From Desulfobulbaceae bacterium UBA5121 (GTDB lineage: Bacteria > Desulfobacterota > Desulfobulbia > Desulfobulbales > UBA5123): a stretch of DNA of 64,000 nucleotides. Below are positions 13,018 through 52,629 of this stretch, in pieces. The DNA lies in the NCBI GenBank assembly GCA_002414225.1, contig DHYV01000019.1, positions 54,907-118,906 on the forward strand. The letters are read 5' to 3'. A program made the translations under genes and the position numbers. The number at the start of each line of letters is the position of its first letter. The stretch's first letter is position 1. Under the pieces are notes generated by a model, which had not been told where the DNA came from, searched no databases, and saw only the letters and a program-made list of their open reading frames with translations.

Positions 13018-13513
13018 GGCTGGCGGCGGGGAATGGGGAAGGCGATGATCTGCATGGCTTCAACATAGCCAAAAGCTGCCAGGTCGGCAAGGGAACTGCA
13101 TGGTATGGGGCTGTTTGCCCGAGCGGTCAGTGGCCCACCTGTGAAGGTGGTGCCTATCGTGTCTGCGGAGTGCGTGTCAGTGATGGCTTTAAACGGGTGG
13201 CATGACTGTTCTTCGGTCATGACCGGTGTCATCCTGGCTGACGAGCCGGCTTCTTTTCCATGGTGAAGGGCGTTATTATGTCGGAATGGAGCAAAAAAGA
13301 AGATTAAAAAAATCTTGCTTTTTTTGAAGGGAGGTGATTGTATGATTTATTGCTTTAGAGTTTGTGTAGTAGATCCACCAAATGGTCAGCCAGCGAAAAC
13401 GCCGCACGACCTTGTGGAAGGTTGCTGCGGCCTTTTTTGTTCGGCTGTTGGATCCTGCACAGGAAATGCCTCCCGGTTGGGGGCAAGAATCAGCGAAACA
13501 TGAGGATTAGGAC

Positions 13514-13717
13514 ATGGCTGAAGGTACGGTAAAATGGTTTAACGATGGCAAGGGTTTTGGGTTTATTGCCCAGGAAAATGGTCCGGACGTGTTTGTGCAC
13601 TTCTCTGCTATTCAGGGTGAGGGCTTCAAGTCCCTTGCCGAGGGCGAGCGGGTCCAGTTCGATGTGGTTGACGGCGCCAAAGGCCCCCAGGCTTCAAATG
13701 TCGTTAAGCTTTCCTAA
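13514..13717 (+). CDS. cspA: cold-shock protein (CspA family)
   Basis: 67 aa with [12 protein letters not shown] (RNP1) and VFVHFSAI (RNP2). Confidence 0.95.
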
Positions 13718-13759
13718 TCTACGTAACTGAATCGTAAAGATTAGCAGGCTGCAAGCTCC

Positions 13760-13794
13760 AACGCCCCGCGGTTTTCCGCGGGGCGTTTTTTTTT
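13760..13794 (+). terminator. rho-independent terminator after csp
   Basis: aacgccccgcgg-tttt-ccgcggggcgtt followed by a T-run. Confidence 0.8.
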
Positions 13795-39077: not shown

Positions 39078-39800
39078 TCATTTGTCCCGGAGAAGGGGCT
39101 GCTTCTGCAATCGCTTGTAATAGAGGTTTTGCCCGTAGAGAACGGATACCGGATTATGGCCGGTAACCCGGTCCTTTACCACCATGGTGGTAACCGGAGC
39201 ATCCGAGTATCTGGTGAACAAAATGTCATGGCCCACGCACAATCCGACAATAATATTAAGGTCGGTATTGGCCTCGTTCAGAAGCCTGGCCTGAGCCACT
39301 GGATTGCAGGCCGGCTCAAAGGTGTTGGGGCGAACCTTTTCTTCCTCCGTGAGTCCAAGTTCCAACTTGTCGATACTGCCTGATTTGCAGCAGACGCTGA
39401 CCGTCTTGAAACCCTGGGCATCCAAAATGGCTGCCAGGCGGTTTGTCTCATCCAGCAAGCCGATACAGGTTGCGATGCCAATCTTCTTGTATTTCATGAA
39501 CTTGGCAAAGGCGATGGTGTCTTCCACTCTGGTCCAGCGGGCATTGATTGCATCACTGCCTGCGGCGGACTGGTAGCCGAGACCTTCCACCTGGGCCGCG
39601 ACCTTGGCTATACGGGCATCTTCCGTGTTCTCTTTGTAGAGTTCAAATGATTCCTTTATAATCTCGGCATGGTTTCTCGTCGGGCAGTTGCCCGGTTTGG
39701 CCGGTTTGTTTTTCGGGTCAACGCTCCAGCAATTGGTGCTTTCGCTTTTTCGCCAGGCGGCGCTGCATTTGCTACAGCTGAAATCATTTTGCTTGCTCAT
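39078..39800 (-). CDS. DUF1847-like metal-binding (Cys-rich) protein
   Basis: ATG at 39800 after GGGGGAGA. CSKC, CW, CP N-terminal cysteines, plus GIATCIGL and VCCKSG blocks. The family name is from memory only. Confidence 0.75.
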   Translation of the reverse strand: MSKQNDFSCSKCSAAWRKSESTNCWSVDPKNKPAKPGNCPTRNHAEIIKESFELYKENTEDARIAKVAAQVEGLGYQSAAGSDAINARWTRVEDTIAFAKFMKYKKIGIATCIGLLDETNRLAAILDAQGFKTVSVCCKSGSIDKLELGLTEEEKVRPNTFEPACNPVAQARLLNEANTDLNIIVGLCVGHDILFTRYSDAPVTTMVVKDRVTGHNPVSVLYGQNLYYKRLQKQPLLRDK

Positions 39801-39987
39801 GGTTAATCTCCCCCCCTTGCCCATCTCCTTTCGGAAAGGCTGGTTCCACATTTTTCACCATGTTCATGGGAAATGCGGCTGATGGCTCGACTCGAGGTGA
39901 TTTCGGTTCCGGAATTGACAGCTTAACCATTGGCAACTATCATTACAAATGAATACTTCGGATGTGAGCTATCACTGTTGGTGATTT

Positions 39988-40842
39988 GTGGAGATTAGCG
40001 ACCTCAGAATATTTTTAGCCGTTGCCCAACAGGGCAGCATTTCACGGGCAGCAGAGGAATTGCACTACGTCCAGTCCAATGTCACGGCGCGGATCAAGCA
40101 GCTGGAGGAGCGGCTGGGCACCGTTCTCTTCCACCGGAAAAGCAGGGGGGTGGTCATGACCTCCTCCGGGCAGCTCCTTTTGGACTATGCGCAACGAATT
40201 ATCCGATTGACCAAGGAAGCCGAGGAGGTGATCCGCGACCAAGGAGAACCGAAAGGCAGGCTTTTGATCGGGTCCATGGAAACGACCGCGGCTGTGCGGC
40301 TGCCTCCACTTCTGGCCAGCTATCATCGTTTGTATCCGAAAGTCGAGTTGAGCCTGGTCACCGGTTCGTCGGCAGAGTTGTTAAAACGGCTGCTTGATTA
40401 TCAAATCGATGGGGCTCTGGTGGCGGGAGAAATTTCTCAAGAAGCATTGCTCGTCGAGAAGGCCCATGAAGAGGAAATGGTTCTCGTGACCCCCCCGGAT
40501 GTTGATGACCCGGGACAACTGGCAAATTTCAAGATCCTTGTTCTGCGTGCCGACTGCGCTTGCCGGGCACAACTGGAGAAGTGGCTGCATAGCACCGGGC
40601 GACTGCCGTATCAAATTATTGAAATCGGCTCAATTGAGGGAATTATCGGCTGCGTTGCCGCCGGCATGGGGGTTGGTTTCATGCCGCGCTCGGTTGTCGA
40701 CAAAGCACACATTCGCAAAATTTGCGCGCTGCACTCCTTGCCCGATCATTTTGGCACCCTGACAACCTGGTTTGTTCGTCACCACACGGATAACACAAGC
40801 AGGGCCATGCAGGCTTTTAGAGATCTGGTCGTGGCTGAATAA
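39988..40842 (+). CDS. LysR-family transcriptional regulator
   Basis: GTG start. HTH block LRIFLAVAQQGSISRAAEELHYVQSNVTARIKQLEE and a typical LysR substrate-binding region. Divergent from the DUF1847-like gene. Confidence 0.9.
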   Translation: MEISDLRIFLAVAQQGSISRAAEELHYVQSNVTARIKQLEERLGTVLFHRKSRGVVMTSSGQLLLDYAQRIIRLTKEAEEVIRDQGEPKGRLLIGSMETTAAVRLPPLLASYHRLYPKVELSLVTGSSAELLKRLLDYQIDGALVAGEISQEALLVEKAHEEEMVLVTPPDVDDPGQLANFKILVLRADCACRAQLEKWLHSTGRLPYQIIEIGSIEGIIGCVAAGMGVGFMPRSVVDKAHIRKICALHSLPDHFGTLTTWFVRHHTDNTSRAMQAFRDLVVAE

Positions 40843-41859: not shown

Positions 41860-42662
41860 ACCTCTGCGGGGTGTTGGCGTTCGTCGGCCACGAGATAGGC
41901 GACCATGGCCGGCTTGTTCTTGAGGGTGATGGCCCCTCGTTTTTCGAAGGCGAAAGCGTGTTCGGCCTCTCGATAGGTTGCCTGGGAGACGTTGACCCGG
42001 CCGGGGAGTCCCGCCGACTCGAAGCGGGAGGCGATGTTGACGTCGTCGCCGAAGACGTCGAACTGCATGCGTTCCGTGCCGACCACTCCGGCCATCACCT
42101 GGCCGGTATGGATGCCCAGCCGCATTGCCAGGGGGTGCTCCCGGCCGCGGTTGAATGCGCGGATGAATTCCTGCATGGCCAGACCGGCCCGGATCGCCAG
42201 GACCGGATGAGCTGCCACCTCCTCGGGGGCGCCGAACACCGCCATGTAGGAGTCGCCGATGGTCTTGACCTTGGTGCCGCCGGCGTCGGCCACCAGTCGG
42301 TCGAAGCCGCTGAAGATCGTGTCGAGGGTTTCGACGAGCTGTTCGGGCGGAACCTTTTCGGCCAGCGCGGTGAAGCCGACGAAGTCGGTGAAGAGGATGG
42401 TGCACTGATAGCGGCGCGGCGTAAAACGGCTGCGGTACTTGATCTCATCGGCCACCCCGACCGGCAAGGTGTTCTTGAGGAGGCTGTCCACTCGTTTTTC
42501 GAGCCGGACGTAGGATCTGAGCAGCTCGCTGAGCAGGCTTTTCTGGAGGGCGTCGTCCCGGATCAGCGACAGGGAGTCGAGATAGGTCAAGAGAAGGGCG
42601 TTGACCGAGTCCCGGCTGGCCTCCGCGCCTTGATAGAGCGTGAGCAGGGTATGGGTTTCCAT
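41847..42662 (-). CDS. class III adenylate/guanylate cyclase (adenylate-type residues), short helical N-terminus
   Basis: 271 aa with FTDFVGFT, VKTIGDSYMAVFG (Lys as in adenylyl cyclases), FDVFGDDVNIASRFES. AAGGA RBS. Confidence 0.9.
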   Translation of the reverse strand: METHTLLTLYQGAEASRDSVNALLLTYLDSLSLIRDDALQKSLLSELLRSYVRLEKRVDSLLKNTLPVGVADEIKYRSRFTPRRYQCTILFTDFVGFTALAEKVPPEQLVETLDTIFSGFDRLVADAGGTKVKTIGDSYMAVFGAPEEVAAHPVLAIRAGLAMQEFIRAFNRGREHPLAMRLGIHTGQVMAGVVGTERMQFDVFGDDVNIASRFESAGLPGRVNVSQATYREAEHAFAFEKRGAITLKNKPAMVAYLVADERQHPAEVCQS

Positions 42663-42696
42663 CGGGTATCCTTGGCAGCGAGAGAGGGGGGGCGGG

Positions 42697-43158
42697 TCAG
42701 CCGATGGCGTCCTTGACCGCCTGGGCTCTTGCGAGGTGAATTTCGGTTTCCTTGGCCAGTTGTTTCAACACGGAGCGCGCCTTCTCCGTCATCCCGTCGA
42801 AGTGGTTGAAGATGTTTTTTTCGAGCAGCGAGCGCTCCAGGTCAACGGTGGCGGCTACGGCATGGGACAGGGTGAGCTGGTTGTCCTCCGCCTTGGCGAG
42901 GATCTGCTCGACATATTCAATGAAGCTGCTCACCGTGTAGGTTTTGATCTTCCCCTCCTGGAAGAGCACCACTCCCTTGTCGGCGGCCTCATGGAGCTGC
43001 TGCAGCCAGCTGGCGTGCTTGTGTTCCTCCTTGGCAAGGGTGTTCCAGAGTTCCGCGTGCTGCGGAAACTGCGCGGCGAAAAGGGAATAGAGCTTGCAAA
43101 GAAGTTGTTCCTGACGGACCAGGGAGTCGAGCATCTTCTTTTGGTAGGGTTTGAGCAT
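42697..43158 (-). CDS. ferritin-like four-helix-bundle protein (possible di-iron)
   Basis: 153 aa, all-helical text, with AKEEHKH (ExxH) and a second acidic/His block KETEIH that is imperfect. 34-nt gap to the cyclase gene. Confidence 0.65.
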   Translation of the reverse strand: MLKPYQKKMLDSLVRQEQLLCKLYSLFAAQFPQHAELWNTLAKEEHKHASWLQQLHEAADKGVVLFQEGKIKTYTVSSFIEYVEQILAKAEDNQLTLSHAVAATVDLERSLLEKNIFNHFDGMTEKARSVLKQLAKETEIHLARAQAVKDAIG

Positions 43159-43373
43159 GGTTTATGCGCCTCGTCCTCGGCGTGGAGAAAATTAATCACT
43201 GGCAAACATTTAAGCCTAATTTTGGGGCGGCGGCAAGTGAGTGTTTCTGTCAGGAAGGCGGTTTTCGCCGGCGCTTCGTGTATTGCATTCCTGTCCCCCG
43301 CTGCGCTACTCTTTTTGGGAGAGATTCGGCAAACCGGGGCGTTGGTCGCGCTGGCTGCGGCAAGGGAGGGCTG

Positions 43374-44618
43374 ATGGCGCTGGAACTGGGCAGGATCATG
43401 GTCGAGGAGGTCGTCTTGGGCGAGGCGACCTGGCTCGCCGGCCGGACCTTGGTGGTGGGGCGTGAAGAGCTTGACGATTTTCTTCGCGGCAGCGACGCAC
43501 GACTCGCCCGGATCGATGTCTCCCTGGCGAGCCCCGGCGACGATTGCCGGATCGTCTGCGTCAAGGATGTCATCGAGCCGCGGGTGAAGGTGGCCGGCGA
43601 CCGGATCGGCGTCGGCCGCACCCTTATCCTCAATGGGGTGGCGGTGGTCACCTGCGGCCAGATCGTCGGCTTCCAGGAGGGGATCATCGACATGCGCGGC
43701 CCGGGTGCGGCCCATTCGCCCTTCAGCCAGACCATGAACGTGGTGCTGGATATCGCGGTGGTCGACGGCCTCTCCCCCCACCAGCACGAGGAGGCGGTCC
43801 GGCTTGCCGGGCTGCGGGCCGCCGCTTTCCTGGCCGAAGCGGCGCGCAAGGCGCGGCCCGAGGCGGTGGCGTGTTACGAGGAACTCGTGGCGAGCGCCGG
43901 TTCCCCCTCACTGCCCCGGGTGGCCTATCTCTACATGCTGCTCAGCCAGGGTCTGCTCCACGACACCTATGTCCTGGGAGAAAACGCCCAAGGCGGGCTG
44001 CCCCGCGACATCTCCCCCCTGGCGCTCCTCGACGGAGCCATCACCTCGGGCAACTGCGTCAGCGCCTGCGACAAGAACACCACCTTTCATCACCAGAACA
44101 ATCCGCTCCTTGCCGAGCTGCTGGCCCGCCACGGCCGCGAACTCAATTTCGTCGGCGTGGTGCTCACCAACGAGCCGGTGCGCTTGGCCGACAAGGAAGC
44201 GTCGGCCCGTCGGGCCGTGGCCCTTCTCATGGAGCTGGCCCCGGCCGGGGTGGTGATCAGCAAGGAGGGGTTCGGCAACCCGGACGCCGACCAGATGATG
44301 TTGATCCGCGGCCTGGAGCAGGCGGGGATCAGGACGGTATCGATCACCGACGAGTACGCCGGCCCGGACGGCGCTTCCCAGTCCCTGGCCGATATCACCG
44401 CCGAGGCCGACGCCATCGTCTCGGCGGGCAACGCCAATGCACGCATCGTCCTGCCGGCCATGGCCCGCACCTTGGGGCCCCTTGCCGACCTGAGCAGGCT
44501 GGCCGGGGCCTATCCCCAGAGCCTGCGGCCGGACGGTTCCGTGGAGATCGAGCTGCAGGGATTGATCGGCGCCACCAACCAGCTGGGCTGGCAGCGCTTG
44601 CGGGCCAGGGAGGTGTAG
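43374..44618 (+). CDS. grdE: glycine/sarcosine/betaine reductase component B proprotein (GrdE/GrdG/GrdI-like)
   Basis: ATG at 43374 after AAGGGAGGG; 414 aa. GAITSGNCVSACDKNTTFHHQNNP contains the Asn-Cys (Cys228) expected for pyruvoyl-forming self-cleavage. The stop lies 3 nt before the grdB-like start. Confidence 0.8.
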   Translation: MALELGRIMVEEVVLGEATWLAGRTLVVGREELDDFLRGSDARLARIDVSLASPGDDCRIVCVKDVIEPRVKVAGDRIGVGRTLILNGVAVVTCGQIVGFQEGIIDMRGPGAAHSPFSQTMNVVLDIAVVDGLSPHQHEEAVRLAGLRAAAFLAEAARKARPEAVACYEELVASAGSPSLPRVAYLYMLLSQGLLHDTYVLGENAQGGLPRDISPLALLDGAITSGNCVSACDKNTTFHHQNNPLLAELLARHGRELNFVGVVLTNEPVRLADKEASARRAVALLMELAPAGVVISKEGFGNPDADQMMLIRGLEQAGIRTVSITDEYAGPDGASQSLADITAEADAIVSAGNANARIVLPAMARTLGPLADLSRLAGAYPQSLRPDGSVEIELQGLIGATNQLGWQRLRAREV

Positions 44619-44621
44619 GGA

Positions 44622-45941
44622 ATGGCGATACGGGTGGTGCACTATCTGAACCAGTTCTTCGGCGGCCTGGGCGGCGAGGAGCAGGCCGGAGTCGGTCCCT
44701 CCCTGGTGGCCGGCGCCAAGGGGCCCGGCATCCTGCTGGAACGGCTCCACCCGGATCTCTTGGTGGTGGCCACGGTGGTCTGCGGCGACAACGCCCTGGC
44801 CGAGCGTCCCGAAGCCATGGTGGCCGAGATCCTCGACCTGCTGGCGCCTTTGTTTGCCGCCGGTCAGGAGGAGCGGCCGCAGCTGCTCGTCGCCGGCCCC
44901 GCCTTTAACGCCGGCCGGTACGGGCTCGCCTGCGGCGCGGTCTGTCAGGCGGTGGCCGAGCGGTACGGGATACCGGTGGTCACCGCCATGGCCCCTGAAA
45001 ACCCCGGGGTCGAGCAGTACCGCCACGCGGTGCCCATGGTCGCCACCGCCCTGGACGTGGGCGGCATGGCGGCGGCGCTTGGCGGCATGGCCGCGCTGGG
45101 CGGGAAGCTTGTCAAAGGTGTGGAGGTACTGCCGGAACGGGACGGCTATCTGCCCCAGGGGTTGCGCAGAAACGTCTGGGCGGCCGAAAGCGGGGCGCAG
45201 CGGGCGGTGGCCATGCTGCTCGCCAAGCTGCATGGCGAGCCCTTTGCCACCGAGTACGCCATGCCGGTCTTCGACCGGGTGGAGCCGGCCCCGGCCATTG
45301 CCGACCTGAGCCGCGCCACCCTGGCCCTGGTCACCTCGGGCGGCATCGTCCCCCGGGGCAACCCGGACCGCATCGAGGCGGCCAACGCCCAGAAGTACGG
45401 CGCCTATTCGCTCACCGGCCTGGCGGCCTTAAGCCCGGCAAGCCATCAGACCGCCCACGGCGGCTATGACCCCACCTACGCCAACGACGACCCCAACCGG
45501 GTGCTGCCCCTGGACGCGGTGCGGGAACTCGAGGCAACGGGCCGCATCGGCCGCCTCCATGAAACCTACTTTGCCACCGTGGGCAACGCCACCTCGGTGG
45601 CCAACGCCCGCCGTTTCGGCCAGGAGATCGCTCACCGGCTGCTGTCGGCCCGGGTGCAGGCGGTGATCCTCACCTCCACCTGAGGTACCTGCACTCGTTG
45701 CGGGGCAACGATGGTCAAGGAGATCGAACGGGCCGGGATCACGGTGGTGCACTGCTGCTCCATCGTTCCCATCTCGCTCACCGTGGGCGCCAACCGCATC
45801 GTGCCCACCGTCGCCATTCCCCACCCCTTCGGCGACCCGGCCAAGACGGTTGCCGAGGAGCGGGCGCTGCGGAGGCAGCTGGTGGAGCGGGCCCTCCAGG
45901 CCCTGGCCACCCCAGTGAGCGGCCAGCAGGTTTTTTCCTGA
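44622..45941 (+). CDS. grdB: glycine/sarcosine/betaine reductase selenoprotein B (GrdB/F/H-like); in-frame UGA at 45681-45683 read as selenocysteine
   Basis: N-terminus MAIRVVHYLNQFFGGLGGEEQA. Track ORFs 44622..45683 and 45711..45941 are in the same frame. Read-through gives TST-U-GTCTRCGATMVKEIERAGITVVHCCSIVPISLTVGANRIVP (UxxCxxC). Confidence 0.85.
45695..45711 (+). promoter_or_regulatory. SECIS-like hairpin downstream of the grdB UGA
   Basis: Perfect stem tcgttgc / gcaacga with a GGG loop, starting 11 nt after the UGA. Confidence 0.5.
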
Positions 45942-45948
45942 AATTTCC

Positions 45949-46404
45949 CTATTCTTCCCGCTTCTCCCCCAGGGTCTTGAGGATGGCGGCCAGGGCCTCT
46001 TCCTCCAACTCCAGCTCGTAGATGGCCATCTGTTCCTCCCACACCGGGGCCGGGATTTCTCCTTTCAGCTCCATGATGTGGTAGGTGGCGAGCCCCAGTC
46101 CGACCCCGGCCAGCGGCCCGGCAAAGCTCGGGTCGCCGCTGCGGAAGGTGGTGGCCATGATGGCCAGGGCGCTGGGCTGGTTGATGCCGGTCACCACCAG
46201 CAGTTCTTGGTTGCCGTACCGTTCGGCAAGGTTCTTGACCTCTTCCTGCTCCGTAAAACTTACGGCGCCGGCCGCGGTTCAGACAAAGCAGGCGGTGGCC
46301 TCGTAGAGGATCTCGCAGCCCGCCGCTCGCAGACAGGCGGCGATGGTGGTCCCGGAGATATCATCCCGTTCGCCAAAGACGATGGCCTTCTTGCCCTGCA
46401 GCAT
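45949..46404 (-). CDS. grdA: glycine reductase complex selenoprotein A; in-frame UGA (plus-strand 46279-46281) read as Sec42
   Basis: Manual translation from ATG 46404 (AAGGGAGG RBS): MLQGKKAIVFGERDDISGTTIAACLRAAGCEILYEATACFV-U-TAAGAVSF...GDPSFAGPLAGVGLGL.... This carries the CxxU motif of GrdA. The track shows only the part after the UGA (45949..46197). Confidence 0.85.
46251..46265 (-). promoter_or_regulatory. SECIS-like hairpin downstream of the grdA UGA
   Basis: Minus-strand ccgtaa-gtt-ttacgg, starting 13 nt after the UGA. Confidence 0.4.
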
Positions 46405-46435
46405 GGTTCATACCTCCCTTGCCCTGATTCAGTTG

Positions 46436-47905
46436 TCAGCTGGTACCGGCCCGCGGGTTCCGTTCCATGATGAAGGAAACCCCGTCCAGCAGGTTGGTGC
46501 AGCGGTTGAGAAAGATGCTGGCCCGGGCCAGGAACATGGCCCGCCTGATCTCGCCCCGCGCCATGGCCGCCATGGCGTGGCCCAGGTAGGGAACGGCCGA
46601 GGGGATGTGGCCCTGGGTGGGGGCAAAGCCGACCATGCCCACCCGGCCGATCCACGCCTCCATCTCCTCCTTGGCCAGTTGCCCGGCCCGCACCGCCATG
46701 GCCGCGATCTTGCGGTAGTTCTTTTTGGTCACGTCGCCGGAGCCGGCAAACTCGGTGATCTCCGGGTTCTGCAGCTCCGGGGCAAAGCGGTCGATGTCGG
46801 TGAGCTTGAGCCCCAGGGCCGTGAGCGGCGCCAACAGGTAGTGGCGGAAGACCGCCTCGTCCGAGGTGCTGGCCGCCACCGGCACCTTGCCTACCGCCCC
46901 CGGATCCAGGCGGATGACGGGATTTTCGCCGTCGTCCTCGCCGACCAGGAAGGCCATGGCGGCCAGCGCGTCGTCCAGGATCGGCATCTCGTGGTCGAGA
47001 AAGGCCTGGAACTTCATGCCCAGCTTGGCAAGCGAGCCGCCGCCCACCACCACCACGCGGCGGTGGACCCCGGCCCGGACCAGGGCCGCCGCGGTGATGA
47101 TGGCCGAGGCCGGGGCGGCGCAGAAGTTCTTGAGGTCCATGCCCGAGGCGTTAGGGCAGCCGCAGAGTTCGGCGATCGCCTTGGCCATGCCGCCGCCGCC
47201 CCGCTGGTAGCGGTCGCCGCATGCCTCCTCGCCGCAGCTGATCACGAAGTCGACCTCTTCCGGGTCGATTCCCGCCCGGTGGAGGAGCCAGGTCAGGGCC
47301 AGGCCGCCCGAGGCCTTGGTGCAGAGGTTTTCCAGGAGATGGTGGGCGGCGAGGTTCTCATCGTCGCTGCCCTCGGCCCGCAGGTCGCCGTGAAAAGAGC
47401 CGAAGACTTCGTCGTGCAGGGTGAGGGGCAGGGCCGCCGCCGGTGCCGCGGCCGGGGCGCTTTCCATGGACCGGTCAGCGAGATCGGCGCCGAAATGGGC
47501 CAGCAGGGGATGGCCGGCCAGCCGGCGGGCGAGCCGCTGCCGGTGCGTGTCGTCGCAGATGAGGAGGGGGGGCTGCAGGGCGTCGGCCCGGAGCAAGAGG
47601 CCGTAAAAGGTTTCCTGGTCGATGATCTCGCCAAAGGGGCCACGGCTGGGCGCCTTGGCGTCCGGCGGTGGCCGGAACCAGGGGCGCTCAATGCCGCCCA
47701 GTGCCTCCGGGCTGAGGTTGCCGATGAAGGTCTGGTTGGCGGGGTAGGAAACGGCCTCCTTAAAAGAGCGCAGCCGGTGGGCGAGTTGGCTGGCGAGCTC
47801 CGGCGCCCTGGCCAGTTCCCGACGCGGCTTGGAGCCGTACCGCACCAGATCCGGCACATGGGCAAGGCAGTAGGCAACACTCTTGATCACCGGCCAGCTG
47901 GGCAT
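46436..47905 (-). CDS. grdC: glycine reductase complex component C, beta subunit-like (GrdC)
   Basis: 489 aa. N-terminus MPSWPVIKSVAYCLAHVPDL; CGEEACGDRYQRGGGGMAKAIAE; MVGFAPTQGHIPSAVPY. 31-nt gap to grdA. Confidence 0.8.
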   Translation of the reverse strand: MPSWPVIKSVAYCLAHVPDLVRYGSKPRRELARAPELASQLAHRLRSFKEAVSYPANQTFIGNLSPEALGGIERPWFRPPPDAKAPSRGPFGEIIDQETFYGLLLRADALQPPLLICDDTHRQRLARRLAGHPLLAHFGADLADRSMESAPAAAPAAALPLTLHDEVFGSFHGDLRAEGSDDENLAAHHLLENLCTKASGGLALTWLLHRAGIDPEEVDFVISCGEEACGDRYQRGGGGMAKAIAELCGCPNASGMDLKNFCAAPASAIITAAALVRAGVHRRVVVVGGGSLAKLGMKFQAFLDHEMPILDDALAAMAFLVGEDDGENPVIRLDPGAVGKVPVAASTSDEAVFRHYLLAPLTALGLKLTDIDRFAPELQNPEITEFAGSGDVTKKNYRKIAAMAVRAGQLAKEEMEAWIGRVGMVGFAPTQGHIPSAVPYLGHAMAAMARGEIRRAMFLARASIFLNRCTNLLDGVSFIMERNPRAGTS

Positions 47906-48250
47906 GAATTCCTTTCTCTCGCCGAAGGAGACACCGATTGCCTGACTCCCTGGAGTTGGCTTGTGTGCCGCGTTCCAGCGCCATCTTTTCTTCTAATATA
48001 CATGAGTTGTCGGGTTCGCGGCGGTGATTTTAGCGTCTTGCAGATACTGAGCCACCGGCCGTTATGTCTTGGCCTGCCGGCATGATGCGGGGAGGGCGGA
48101 GCGGATGGCCGCCCTCCAGCCTCGGAGCGCCTCGCGTCACCCTGCTGTCCCCCTCGGTAAAAGGGGGATCTTCCGGAACCTGCCCGCCTTTTTTCGTTTT
48201 TTCGCCTTGTTCTGCTTGTGATGCGAGTCCGCCAGTTGTAAATACAGGCT

Positions 48251-48943
48251 ATGTCCTTGATCTGCGACAGTATTGGCTTCACCTATCCCGACGCCGCGCT
48301 CCCACTTTTTTCCAATGTGTCGTTCCGGTTGCCGGCACCGGGCTTTCATGCCTTTTTCGGACCATCAGGGGTGGGGAAGACCTCGCTGGCCAGGATCATC
48401 ACCGGCGGTATCGGCCGCTTTTCCGGCACGGTTACCAGCGCCGGCCTCAGAACCCTCCTCTACTCCTACAACACCGAGCGGCTCCCCGGCTGGTCCAGCG
48501 TCGGCCGCCACCTGGAACGGGTCATCCCGCCTTCGCAGCACCGCCGCCTGGCGGAACTGGTGGAAATCTTCGGGCTCGCCGACTGCATCGGCTCCCGCTT
48601 CAACCGCCTCTCCATGGGGCAGCGCAACCGGGTCAACCTGATCCGCTACCTGCTCCAGGACTGCGACCTGCTGATCATGGACGAGAGCCTGGCCAATGTC
48701 GATGAACTGACCCGGGAAAAGATCATCCTGGCCGTGAAGGCGCTCTTTCCCGAGCGCTACTTCATCTATATCTCCCACAACGTCACGGAGGTCGCCAGGT
48801 TTTGCGATGCGATCCTGGTCTTTCGCAGCGCCGACAAGGCGCCGCAGACCGTGATGGTGCAGGGGGGCAACCTCCGGGACGGGGAGAGCCTGTCGCGCTC
48901 GGCCCTGGACGCCACGCTCCTGGAGATCATGAATGCTGCCTAG
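48251..48943 (+). CDS. ABC transporter ATP-binding protein (NitT/TauT-like)
   Basis: Walker A GPSGVGKTS, signature LSMGQRNR, Walker B LLIMDES. 11-nt overlap with the permease gene. Confidence 0.9.
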   Translation: MSLICDSIGFTYPDAALPLFSNVSFRLPAPGFHAFFGPSGVGKTSLARIITGGIGRFSGTVTSAGLRTLLYSYNTERLPGWSSVGRHLERVIPPSQHRRLAELVEIFGLADCIGSRFNRLSMGQRNRVNLIRYLLQDCDLLIMDESLANVDELTREKIILAVKALFPERYFIYISHNVTEVARFCDAILVFRSADKAPQTVMVQGGNLRDGESLSRSALDATLLEIMNAA

Positions 48944-49691
48944 GCGGATCCTCCAGTTCCTGATCATCTACTGTCTCTTCATCGGCACCCTCATGCTGGT
49001 CAAGTATGGCTTACGGCTTTCCGATTACGTGATCCCGGCGCCCGCGGCCATCTTCCAGACCCTGCTTGCCGAGTACCGCCAGTACACCCTCGCCACCATG
49101 AACACCTTGACCGTGGCGGTGGTGGGCCAGGTGCTGTCGGTGATCCTGGCGTTCGCCATCGGCATCGTCGGCCGGCGCTCCACCTGGTTCGGCTCCTTCA
49201 TCAAGGTCGCCGCCTACAATATCCAGGCCTATCCCATCGTGGCCCTGGCCCCGATCCTTTTCATCCTGCTGGGCGACGGCTTCCTCACCCGGCTGCTGAT
49301 CGCGGCCATGATCTGTTACTTTCCGGTGCTCCTCTCGGTGCTGGGGATTATGTCCAAGCCGGTGGAGGACATCGAGCATTTCTACCGGGCCACCGGCAAG
49401 ATGCGTTGGCAGCTGGAGGTCAAGATCCGGGCCTTTGAAAACCTCTCCCAGCTGACCACGGTGATCTCGGGCAGCGCCACCCTGGCCATGGCCGGCACCA
49501 TCGTGGCGGAGTTCATCGCCGCCGATGCCGGCATCGGCTACAGCATCCGCATCGCCCTCTACCAGAGCGATCTGGGCAAGATCGTGATCGCCCTCTTCCT
49601 GATCGGGATCACCATCGCCGCCTACCAGGGGCTGCTGGAGCTGCTCGGCTCGGCGGTGAAACGGGCCTGGACCGGCAATGCCCTTTCGTAA
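48933..49691 (+). CDS. ABC transporter permease (NitT/TauT-like)
   Basis: 252 aa, about six hydrophobic helices, with an EAA-like loop region (ATGKMRWQLEVKIRAFENL). Confidence 0.9.
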   Translation: MLPRRILQFLIIYCLFIGTLMLVKYGLRLSDYVIPAPAAIFQTLLAEYRQYTLATMNTLTVAVVGQVLSVILAFAIGIVGRRSTWFGSFIKVAAYNIQAYPIVALAPILFILLGDGFLTRLLIAAMICYFPVLLSVLGIMSKPVEDIEHFYRATGKMRWQLEVKIRAFENLSQLTTVISGSATLAMAGTIVAEFIAADAGIGYSIRIALYQSDLGKIVIALFLIGITIAAYQGLLELLGSAVKRAWTGNALS

Positions 49692-49700
49692 GGAGGAACG

Positions 49701-50705
49701 GTGAAGAACGGAACAGAAAAGAGAGTGCTGGCGGCCTGGCTGCTGCTGGTGGCGATCCTGTGGAGGAGCAGCGCCTTGGCCGCTGACAAGGTGACCTACC
49801 GGCTGAAATGGCTCTACAACGTCAGCGTGGTGGGGGCGCTCTACGCCCAGACCCATCACCTGTTCGAGAGGGCGGGGCTTACCGTGGAGGTCAAGTCGGG
49901 CGGGCCTGAGCGGGACGCCATCCGGGAGCTGGAGCTGGGGTATGCGGATTTCGGCGCCGCCTCGGCCGATCAGGTGCTGCGGGCCCGGGCCAAGGGCTCG
50001 CCGGTGGTGGTGATCGCCCAGTTGTTCCAGGTCAATCCGCTCCAGTGGCTCTATCGGCCGGCTGAGGTGCGGATCGGAAAACTTGCCGACCTCAAGGGCA
50101 AGGTCATCGGTGTGACCTACGGCGGCAACGACGAAACCATCATGCGCACCCTGCTCGGCAAGGGCGGCATCACGACCGGCGAGGTGGACCTGTTCAGCGT
50201 CCGCTTCGACTACACGCCCTTCTACCGCCACCGGGTGCAGCTCTGGCCGGTGTACCGCAACGCCCAGGGGCCGATGATCAGCGACCAGCTGGCCAAGGCC
50301 GGGGAAGCAACCGCTTACTTCAATCCCGCCGATTTCGGGGTACGGTTCGTGGCCAACTCCGTGGTCACCGAGGCGCGCACCTTAGAGGAAAAGCCCGAGC
50401 TGGTGCAGCGGTTTCTCGCCGCCCTGCTGGCGGGCTGGCAGCAGGCGCTTGATCCCAAGAACGAAGAGGAGGCCATCAAGACCCTGCAACAGTTCGATCC
50501 GGACACCAGCTCACGGCCGATCCTCGCCGAGCAGTTGCGGATCACCCGTGAGCTGGTGCAGCCCACCCCAGGTTTTGCCATCGGCACCATCGATCACCAG
50601 GCCTGGGAACAGACCGAGAAGATCATGCTGGGCCAGAAGCAGCTCTCCCGGCAGGTCGATCTCAAGGCGGTTCTCAAGCCGATTGCCGTTCTCTCTGGCC
50701 GATAA
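49701..50705 (+). CDS. ABC transporter substrate-binding protein (NMT1/SsuA/TauA-like)
   Basis: GTG start 5 nt after AAGGAGG; signal peptide ending SSALAADK; 334 aa. Confidence 0.85.
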   Translation: MKNGTEKRVLAAWLLLVAILWRSSALAADKVTYRLKWLYNVSVVGALYAQTHHLFERAGLTVEVKSGGPERDAIRELELGYADFGAASADQVLRARAKGSPVVVIAQLFQVNPLQWLYRPAEVRIGKLADLKGKVIGVTYGGNDETIMRTLLGKGGITTGEVDLFSVRFDYTPFYRHRVQLWPVYRNAQGPMISDQLAKAGEATAYFNPADFGVRFVANSVVTEARTLEEKPELVQRFLAALLAGWQQALDPKNEEEAIKTLQQFDPDTSSRPILAEQLRITRELVQPTPGFAIGTIDHQAWEQTEKIMLGQKQLSRQVDLKAVLKPIAVLSGR

Positions 50706-50937: not shown

Positions 50938-52629
50938 TCAATTCTGGGATGCTGTGCCTGGGCGCGATTGCTGTTCGAGCAGCGCCGCCGCCTCTGTCCC
51001 CCTGATCACCCGTGAATGGCCGGGGTTCCCGTCGGGCTCGGCAACCCCGGGCGGCAGGATAAAGGTGGTCGAATGGCCGCCGTACAGTCCTGACGGAAAG
51101 CGCATCTTCTTGCGGATCACCAGTTGGGTGGGCAGCATGATTTTGCGGACCCCGCCGTTCGAGATGGCCAGCGCCTGGTTGCTGCGGAAAATTTCCAGCG
51201 CCCCTTGTTCGACGAGTTGGGCGAGACCCGCCTGCTGGGGTAAGATTGCAAAGCGTTGCACCGGCAGGGCGGCCACCACGGTGGACGGATCGATCTCGAT
51301 GATCCCGGCCGGGTTGTACTGCTGGGCCTGCTCCCAAAGGGGGGCCGCCGGGCCGCCATGGGGGAAAACGCGGGGCCCGGCCAGGGGGTGTTTGTCGTCC
51401 TGGCTTCCCAAGGGAATACTGATCCTGTCGGCGCTGTATGTTCCGGTGATGCTGTCCGGTGGACGACCAACCGCCAGGGTGATGGCCTCCAGCGTGCGTC
51501 TCGCCTCAACGCTGTTCGGTTTGTAGAAATAGGGGAGACAACCGTTGCGCCCGGTGATGGTCACCCGCTCTTTGGCCACGCTGATCACCCCGACCCGTGG
51601 CAGATCGCCTGCCCCGCCTGTCACGGCACCGGCCACCACCCGCTCGATCCTCTCGACCGAGCCTGAGAAGCGCCAGATGTTGGCCGTGTAAGATGTCAGG
51701 ACGACATAGAGGGGTTCGGAGCCGGATTCGACCGAGATGTCGCTGACCGTCACCGTTTTGTCCTCGTCGCCGAGGCTGACGGTGGAAAGCCCCGCACCTT
51801 CGTAGGCGCCAACCAGAACGATACGGCTGTGCGCACCTGGGGACGGCAGGCCGCATGCCTTTGCCATCTCGAGGAGCTTTTCCTGCTCAGCCTGTGCTCT
51901 TTTGGCCTTCTGGTACTCCTCCCTGATTGCCTTCTCTCGGGCGCGGAAAGCGGTGGCCTCCTCTGCGCTGATCGTGCCGTTGCCGTCCTGGTCGATGGCG
52001 GCGAGCACTTGCTGCGTGGCCGCATCAAACTCGGCAAAGCTTATGGTACCGTCATGGTCGTTGTCCAGCGACAGCGGTACGAGGTCGGGGGAGGAGCCAC
52101 TGCGGTATCTCGCCGCCGAATCGCTGGCGGCCTCGCGCACCTCGGCAAAGGTTATCGTGCCGTCGTTGTCCCGGTCCCAGGCGAGCGCTTCGGTGGTGAG
52201 CTTGGCCAACATGGCGGCGCTCTGTTCAGGGGTTGGCTCAAGAGGCACCCCGTGGCCGGAAAGGGGCAGACGGGTCTGGGGGGTAAAGAAAAGTTCGATT
52301 TCCGCTCGGGTCACCTTGCCGTCGTTGTTCAGATCCCAGCGTCCCCACCGTCTGAGCATCTCGGCTCGTCTCTGGGCCTGCTTGATCTGTTGGGCGAGTT
52401 CATAATCCCGGGCGCTCACTCCATTGCCATCGATATCACTGTTGCGGAAGATCGTGCGCAGGCGCTGACGCAGGAGATCGACTTTCGTATCCTTTTGTAC
52501 GTTGTGGGAGAGCTGTAGCAGAAGCCAGTCCTCTCCCGAGGCGGCGGAGTCACTCCGCGCCGACGTCGGCGCCGATGCGACAGTGGCCATGATCATCAAT
52601 AACCCCAACAGACGAAGAGCGCTTGGCAT
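50938..52629 (-). CDS. secreted EF-hand calcium-binding protein with an unassigned C-terminal domain
   Basis: AAGAGGAG RBS and a signal peptide. Four canonical DxDxDG-type loops (DLNNDGKVTRAE, DRDNDGTITFAE, DNDHDGTISFAE, DQDGNGTISAEE) plus one divergent loop (DIDGNGVSARDY). A region of about 300 aa after them is unassigned. Confidence 0.85.
   Translation of the reverse strand: MPSALRLLGLLMIMATVASAPTSARSDSAASGEDWLLLQLSHNVQKDTKVDLLRQRLRTIFRNSDIDGNGVSARDYELAQQIKQAQRRAEMLRRWGRWDLNNDGKVTRAEIELFFTPQTRLPLSGHGVPLEPTPEQSAAMLAKLTTEALAWDRDNDGTITFAEVREAASDSAARYRSGSSPDLVPLSLDNDHDGTISFAEFDAATQQVLAAIDQDGNGTISAEEATAFRAREKAIREEYQKAKRAQAEQEKLLEMAKACGLPSPGAHSRIVLVGAYEGAGLSTVSLGDEDKTVTVSDISVESGSEPLYVVLTSYTANIWRFSGSVERIERVVAGAVTGGAGDLPRVGVISVAKERVTITGRNGCLPYFYKPNSVEARRTLEAITLAVGRPPDSITGTYSADRISIPLGSQDDKHPLAGPRVFPHGGPAAPLWEQAQQYNPAGIIEIDPSTVVAALPVQRFAILPQQAGLAQLVEQGALEIFRSNQALAISNGGVRKIMLPTQLVIRKKMRFPSGLYGGHSTTFILPPGVAEPDGNPGHSRVIRGTEAAALLEQQSRPGTASQN

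Follow-up and report, generated by a model that had tools for sequence, protein, structure and literature searches.

The region 45949..46404 of a 64,000-nucleotide stretch of contig DHYV01000019.1 from Desulfobulbaceae bacterium UBA5121 (hereafter the window) raises the question of whether a TGA codon on its minus strand closes a short gene or is read through as selenocysteine (Sec). A mechanical list of open reading frames (ORFs) gives two pieces there, 45949..46197 (82 amino acids, GTG start) and a separate 46279..46404 (41 amino acids). Because the second falls below the default listing limit of 60 amino acids, the gene is mostly hidden from the ORF track, in which only the 82-residue piece appears, as the first-pass annotation of this DNA had remarked. 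That annotation had proposed a complete 151-residue selenoprotein A gene (grdA) running from ATG 46404 behind a ribosome-binding site, with the TGA at 46279-46281 in frame and within a C-F-V-U (CxxU) motif. Reading the minus strand bore out these points. Translation from ATG 46404..46402 gave MLQGKKAIVFGERDDISGTTIAACLRAAGCEILYEATACFV, then TGA 46281..46279, then TAAGAVSFTEQEEVKNLAERYGNQELLVVTGINQ..., all in one frame that ends at TAG 45951..45949 (41 + 1 + 109 = 151 codons). The first 41 codons end in ...ATACFV before the TGA, the 109 codons after it begin TAAGAVSFTEQEEV..., and the Shine-Dalgarno sequence AAGGGAGG lies 8 nt before the ATG. We conclude that the product of 45949..46404 is very probably a functional selenoprotein A (GrdA), which acts as the small carrier protein in an enzyme system of the glycine reductase type.

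The assignment to GrdA, also made in the first-pass annotation, was upheld by two profile models, both above their cutoffs. The 151-residue product matched Pfam PF04723 (GRDA) with E=1.5e-44 and 151.7 bits (cutoff 22) over profile positions 1-144 of 147, and the NCBIfam equivalog NF040748 (glycine/sarcosine/betaine reductase selenoprotein A) with 152.4 bits (cutoff 130) over positions 1-149 of 151. As the match runs across the UGA, the GrdA family domain takes in the 41 codons before it. These codons, whose similarity to GrdA had been singled out for checking, aligned to the opening third of both profiles and showed 59-85% identity (mean 75%) to 33 close relatives; the mean for the part after the UGA was 59%. 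For a wider comparison we used 80 related loci (81 with the window), identified by scanning a single representative genome for each species. In tblastn searches, GrdA residues 1-149 were matched to the 80 loci in a single frame, and the stretch of 27 codons that separates the UGA from GTG 46197 was conserved as GrdA sequence. A sequence search of the PDB with GrdA turned up no solved structure of the protein, the only matches being spurious ones, with no stretch that qualified, to designed 'Pizza' repeat proteins. GrdA has been known as a CxxU selenoprotein since the 1980s. The grdA gene of the window is thus genuine but ordinary, an unannotated member of a long-known family, and its CxxU motif is among those listed in a 2026 review (PMC13188914).

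At the codon homologous to the UGA, TGA was found in 81 of the 81 loci, always within one continuous frame; 78 loci read CFV-U-T and three, from Coprothermobacter, read CSV-U-T. We infer that Sec itself is inserted at U42. When the entire 64 kb was scanned for in-frame TGA codons flanked on both sides by sequence with a coding-like GC content at third codon positions (GC3), the only matches inside genes were those of grdA and grdB; a third match was the frdC stop codon, which abuts frdA. TGA is at the same time the commonest ordinary stop in the window, ending 14 of the 33 Pfam-supported genes, among them grdC and, at its own end, grdB. It follows that there is no genome-wide reassignment of the codon and that the recoding is site-specific. 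The Desulfobulbales include known Sec users such as Desulfotalea (PMC1794560).

A 6-bp hairpin with a GUU loop at 46251-46265, 13 nt after the UGA, had also been described in the first-pass annotation; it is present, and covariation supports it. We examined the hairpin in a 35-member clade that includes the window (34 distinct relatives) and in which the region aligns without gaps. In this set, 98% of the stem cells were paired, and three of the six stem pairs kept pairing with changes on both sides (C-G/U-A; U-A/C-G/U-G; A-U/C-G). Neither the covariation score nor the paired fraction was matched in any of 500 column shuffles, and sliding the 3' arm by 1-3 nt as a control lowered pairing to 22-48%. 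Some of the compensatory changes shift the encoded residues in concert (A-V-G-L-T vs A-A-G-L-A), and such coordinated amino acid change with stem compensation points to selection on the RNA. RNAalifold independently recovered the stem. In the loop, all 35 sequences begin with G and at least 90% continue with U; a flanking CCUG/CAGG helix is nearly invariant and so uninformative on covariation. When only the RNA 3' of the ribosome footprint was folded, the hairpin came out as the minimum free energy (MFE) structure for the window; all 35 members of the clade gave it too, with slight variations.

In the fdhF-type Sec insertion sequence (SECIS) of E. coli, a G/U in the apical loop is contacted by SelB. 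Both that element and the grdA hairpin are located inside the coding sequence, at a short and fixed spacing behind the UGA; the grdA stem, however, is shorter, it carries a triloop where the E. coli element has a larger loop and a bulged U, and the two sequences are unrelated. On comparative grounds, the grdA hairpin is a well-supported, clade-specific SECIS variant that is absent from Rfam, with predicted binding of SelB. In seven related loci, no Rfam match to the grdA element was found at the gathering score. More distant grdA genes have no common consensus hairpin, so that a SECIS model is not generalisable beyond the 35-member clade.

A second hidden selenoprotein gene, absent from the first-pass annotation, adjoins grdA. 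Like grdA, grdB is split, here at the TGA that ends the ORF 44622..45683, and its read-through product reads ...LTST-U-GTCTRCG..., with the motif U354-G-T-C357-T-R-C360 (UxxCxxC). The protein scored 569 bits with the TIGR01918 subfamily model and 462 bits with Pfam GRDB. Directly after its TGA begins a full-length Rfam SECIS_4, with a 6-bp stem (CGUUGC/GCAACG), a GGG loop and the stem placed 12 nt after the UGA; SECIS_4 was also found at grdB in five of the related loci (L013, L017, L028, L042 and L060). In both the SECIS_4 of grdB and the grdA hairpin, a stem of 6 bp that starts 12-13 nt after the UGA carries a triloop with G as its first base, but their sequences differ and the grdA element goes undetected by SECIS_4. 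Such a matching design is expected if a single SelB serves both genes, and presumably one SelB reads both elements. The evidence for Sec decoding of grdA in the source organism is indirect but strong: this reading is favoured by the neighbouring grdB with its full-length SECIS_4, by the TGA in 81/81 loci and by the compensatory changes in the hairpin.

Several observations nevertheless weigh against a Sec-decoded grdA within a classical glycine reductase. Among the annotated genes of the 64-kb window there is no tRNA gene and no selA, selB, selC or selD. No Rfam family matched the grdA hairpin at E<=10 in a search of 43000..50000, and folding of the free RNA favours a different, longer fold (-25.2 vs -7.3 kcal/mol). 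GrdB lies below the cutoff of the glycine-specific equivalog TIGR01917 (546.9 vs 602.2 bits), as well as below those of GrdF (561.1 vs 800) and GrdH (483.2 vs 775). Finally, tblastn with a verified GrdD detected no grdD in the window, and the window has no thioredoxin (Trx) or thioredoxin reductase (TrxR) gene.

The lack of Sec machinery genes in the window would be accounted for if the UGA were a real stop and grdA a decayed or split gene, giving at most a 41-residue N-terminal peptide and possibly an 82-residue C-terminal fragment initiated on its own from GTG 46197; ORF finders and public gene calls do return pieces of 41 and 82 amino acids. We consider this highly improbable, as it leaves unexplained the same TGA in the same frame at every locus, the protein-level conservation and coding-like GC3 on both sides of the UGA, the 27 codons before GTG 46197 that are conserved as GrdA, the covarying hairpin at SECIS distance and the adjoining grdB, which has the same design with a recognised SECIS. 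Even less credence can be given to a reading of the UGA as a standard amino acid (e.g. Trp, Gly or Cys) through an altered code or efficient near-cognate suppression. Two homologues could be taken to speak for it, since P0004 is recorded with W, and P0002 has a true TGC Cys codon, at the Sec position. TGA, however, terminates 14 of the 33 confirmed genes of the window, including grdC and grdB, the W of P0004 is most simply the product of a gene call under another translation table, and SelB-dependent recoding calls for just such a conserved hairpin, with G-U in the loop.

The free-RNA fold bears on which structure would act as the SECIS. A long imperfect stem-loop (about 46292..46245) that pairs the UGA itself is the MFE structure of a 66-76-nt context, at -25 to -31 kcal/mol and z=-2.3. 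That this is the SECIS is very unlikely in our estimation: its inner helices are broken in most relatives, with several pairs open in 10-33 of the 34 sequences; its pairing (82.7%) is that of shuffled columns (82.2%), and its covariation score is no better than that of shuffles; half of it lies at or 5' of the UGA, where a decoding ribosome would unwind it; and its apical loop would sit only 9 nt from the UGA. We therefore rejected the longer 76-nt free-RNA structure as a functional element, as it is not conserved and needs the UGA and upstream RNA.

With Sec decoding of grdA as the preferred reading, a course of events can be proposed. Translation would start at ATG 46404, and a ribosome at UGA 46281..46279 would be directed by the downstream hairpin to insert Sec and not to stop. 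The hairpin would serve as a bacterial SECIS recognised by the elongation factor SelB carrying Sec-tRNA, and the product would be a protein of 151 residues with the redox motif Cys39-x-x-Sec42. By analogy with the clostridial system, protein B (the GrdE-like proprotein together with GrdB) would move a carboxymethyl group to the selenol of GrdA; protein C (GrdC) would then form the acetyl ester, GrdA being left oxidised as a Se-S bridge, and a thiol system would re-reduce this bridge. The characterised clostridial scheme is that of Andreesen (2004), as summarised in PMC13188914. The substrate is probably glycine or sarcosine; since GrdB falls below the glycine, sarcosine and betaine cutoffs and the GrdE-like protein below that of GrdG, no substrate class is set by the models. 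A reductant for GrdA is presumed, as is completion of the protein C step without a nearby grdD.

The other two members of the cluster are a grdC gene, located directly 5' of grdA with a gap of 31 nt, and a grdE-like gene directly 5' of grdB. The grdC and grdA genes are probably co-transcribed; they are adjacent in nearly all of the 80 loci, exceptions including L071, L077 and the three loci that contain grdD. The best specific NCBIfam match of the GrdE-like protein was to GrdG, with 420.7 bits (cutoff 780). Of 42 homologues, 33 share its Cys228 (in SGN-C-VSAC), which may be the pyruvoyl-forming cleavage site, as in clostridial GrdE. The grdC-grdA pair converges on the grdE-like-grdB pair, a synteny that is conserved among relatives. 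The stop codons of grdB and grdA stand tail to tail, 7 nt apart (45941..45949), and a promoter and terminator scan of 42600..48400 gave nothing above shuffle expectation. With a convergent gap of 7 nt and no terminator-like site, the two transcripts must overlap or end inside the opposite gene. An ATP-binding cassette (ABC) transporter at 48251..50705 adjoins the cluster but is not next to grd genes in relatives; as this neighbourhood is not conserved, the transporter was not counted as part of the grd system. The coordinates of the features are collected in Table 1.

Table 1. Features of the grd cluster in the window, with the basis of each assignment.
Feature	Position	Strand	Description and basis
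grdE/grdG-like component B proprotein gene	43374..44618	plus	414 aa; Pfam PF09338 Gly_reductase 502.5 bits; start per public gene call
grdB-family selenoprotein B gene	44622..45941	plus	439 codons; putative Sec TGA 45681..45683; translation, TIGR01918, Pfam GRDB
grdB SECIS, Rfam RF01990 SECIS_4	45684..45721	plus	57.7 bits, gathering score 38, E=5e-11, full length 1-38
grdA coding sequence	45949..46404	minus	151 codons including one putative Sec codon; translation, Pfam PF04723, NCBIfam NF040748, tblastn
SECIS-type hairpin of grdA	46265..46251	minus	6-bp stem CCGUAA/UUACGG, loop GUU; stem 13 nt and loop 19 nt after UGA
Putative Sec codon UGA (U42) of grdA	46281..46279	minus	motif C39-F-V-U42 (CxxU); TGA in 81/81 loci
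Shine-Dalgarno sequence of grdA	46420..46413	minus	AAGGGAGG; 8 nt 5' of grdA ATG; read from sequence
grdC, component C beta subunit gene	46436..47905	minus	NCBIfam equivalog NF040746 539.3 bits, cutoff 450; Pfam DUF5940 and thiolase-like

The lack of grdD, the gene for the alpha subunit of protein C, extends beyond the window. The query, a Coprothermobacter GrdD, was verified by its match to NF040747 (587 bits). No grdD was found within +-10 kb of grdA in 77 of the 80 related loci, the only loci with the gene being three of the Firmicutes type (L038, L042 and L054), and among the best 120 of 7,991 matches in a homology search with a GrdD alignment there were only Firmicutes-type proteins. Trx and TrxR genes were near only some of the more distant loci. 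GrdC proteins also differ between the two groups: Cys248-x-Cys250 is present in 50-52 of 60 proteins from loci lacking grdD, in which R232, Y233 and K298 are invariant, and the three GrdD-linked GrdC proteins are without any of these. The taxa with the GrdD-less module are Desulfobulbales, Syntrophales, Binatia, Acidobacteriota and some Spirochaetes. Literature searches turned up no discussion of clusters without GrdD in these taxa. The consistent absence of grdD near grdC outside the Firmicutes-type loci is a lead and not a finding.

These observations suggest that GrdA may be genuine and the module non-classical, working without GrdD and/or on another substrate, which would be compatible with the best explanation for grdA itself. 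Such a module would fit the absence of GrdD from the window and from within +-10 kb in most loci, the direct succession of grdC and grdA in nearly all GrdD-less loci, the Cys248-x-Cys250 motif with R232, Y233 and K298 in GrdD-less GrdC only, GrdB and GrdE scores under all substrate-specific cutoffs, and an AMP-binding enzyme that recurs 5' of grdC in 11 close relatives. However, the genes for GrdD, Trx and TrxR may simply lie in other parts of these genomes, the GrdD-linked comparators are only three, GrdC passes its canonical equivalog cutoff, and Desulfovibrio desulfuricans, which falls in the same broad group, has both subunits of protein C. In strain G11 of that species these are reported to lie in the cluster together with Trx and TrxR (PMC7547702). 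A non-classical module is on balance unlikely. It is equally doubtful, although conceivable, that the four genes (grdE-like, grdB, grdC and grdA) stand for a widespread and undescribed GrdD-less type of glycine-reductase-like system with a clade-specific grdA SECIS and possibly a substrate other than glycine. If this were true, the acetyl-forming step would fall to a distinct GrdC, marked by its additional Cys-x-Cys and the invariant R232, Y233 and K298, which would act either without GrdD or together with a partner that is unlinked or not homologous.

In Coprothermobacter, selD and selA directly follow grdD (L042, 14822..17204), and in a metagenome-assembled genome (MAG) of the Selenomonadales a tRNA-Sec gene lies ~9 kb upstream of grdA (L054, 748..839). 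In these two lineages, then, the grd genes have linked Sec machinery, unlike those of the window. Directly 5' of grdC, 11 loci in the nearest clade (e.g. L006, 6516..8360) have an AMP-binding gene (acyl-CoA-ligase-type, PF00501) that is absent from the window.

Compared with clostridial systems, GrdA of the window shares the length of 151 amino acids, the full-length match to PF04723 and NF040748 and the CxxU motif with its in-frame UGA, and grdA stands likewise beside grdB, grdC and grdE-type genes. The order differs, however, being grdE-grdA-grdB-grdC-grdD in the clostridial arrangement (Coprothermobacter L038 and L042), whereas in the window grdC-grdA converges on grdE-grdB and adjacent grdD, trxA and trxB are lacking. 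Identity to GrdA of the Firmicutes and Syntrophus types is only 42-49%. Other Desulfobulbales are much closer: GrdA proteins of Desulfogranum mediterraneum DSM 13871, Desulfogranum marinum DSM 2058 and MAGs of Desulfocapsa/Desulfurivibrionaceae are 60-68% identical to that of the window, and these relatives have the same convergent four-gene layout and the same hairpin position and shape. They do not share the adjacent ABC transporter, and most have a GUC loop with a G-U closing pair where the window has GUU and A-U. Since the closest GrdA sequences belong to this order and their genes are arranged in the same convergent way, the grd cluster looks native to the lineage. Within the Deltaproteobacteria, GrdA was already catalogued in Syntrophus aciditrophicus and Desulfuromonas acetoxidans in 2006 (PMC1794560).

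Two GrdA homologues deviate at the Sec position. P0002, on an ENA metagenome contig of 1187 bp, has TGC there (L086, 277..279; CFV-C-TAAGA), possibly a sequencing error; the 2006 survey recorded no known Cys homologues of GrdA (PMC1794560). P0004 (ENA, 152 amino acids) has Trp (CFV-W-TAAGA), the UGA presumably having been translated under a table in which UGA is Trp.

The splitting of these genes recurs in public annotation. A protein identical to GrdC of the window is encoded on contig DKAZ01000059.1 of the MAG GCA_002448905.1, where the gene calls divide grdA into 41 + 82 amino acids and grdB into 353 + 76 amino acids, leaving fragments without names. Truncation at the UGA by gene callers is an expected artefact. 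With calls split in this way, pathway reconstructions of this Desulfobulbales lineage would miss a glycine-reductase-type system, a system that bears both on glycine reduction of the Stickland-like kind and on CO2 fixation by the reductive glycine pathway, which has been described in Desulfovibrio (PMC7547702). Of wider value are the clade-specific grdA SECIS, which could serve as the basis of a search model, the pattern of grdD absence and the rare Cys form of a GrdA homologue.

Elsewhere in the window, a 563-residue protein with many EF-hand calcium-binding repeats is encoded near the grd cluster (50938..52629, minus strand); its N-terminus gave a weak match to 'deiodinase family protein' (25.7 bits, cutoff 250). 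A few kb from the cluster, genes at 39078..39851 (minus strand) and 39988..40842 (plus strand) encode a DUF1847 protein adjoining a LysR regulator. This regulator had a sub-threshold match to 'selenium metabolism-associated LysR' (150.7 bits, cutoff 250). At 13329..13790 on the plus strand lies a full-length Rfam cspA thermoregulator (RF01766; 84.6 bits, gathering score 78). The window also contains genes for c7 cytochromes and a monomeric isocitrate dehydrogenase, as well as frdCAB. This gene content had suggested the Desulfuromonadales, a placement that we rejected in favour of an uncultured member of the Desulfobulbales, because the nearest named relatives of the isocitrate dehydrogenase, at 76-79% identity, are proteins from Desulfurivibrionaceae, Desulfobulbaceae, Thiovibrio and Desulfurivibrio.

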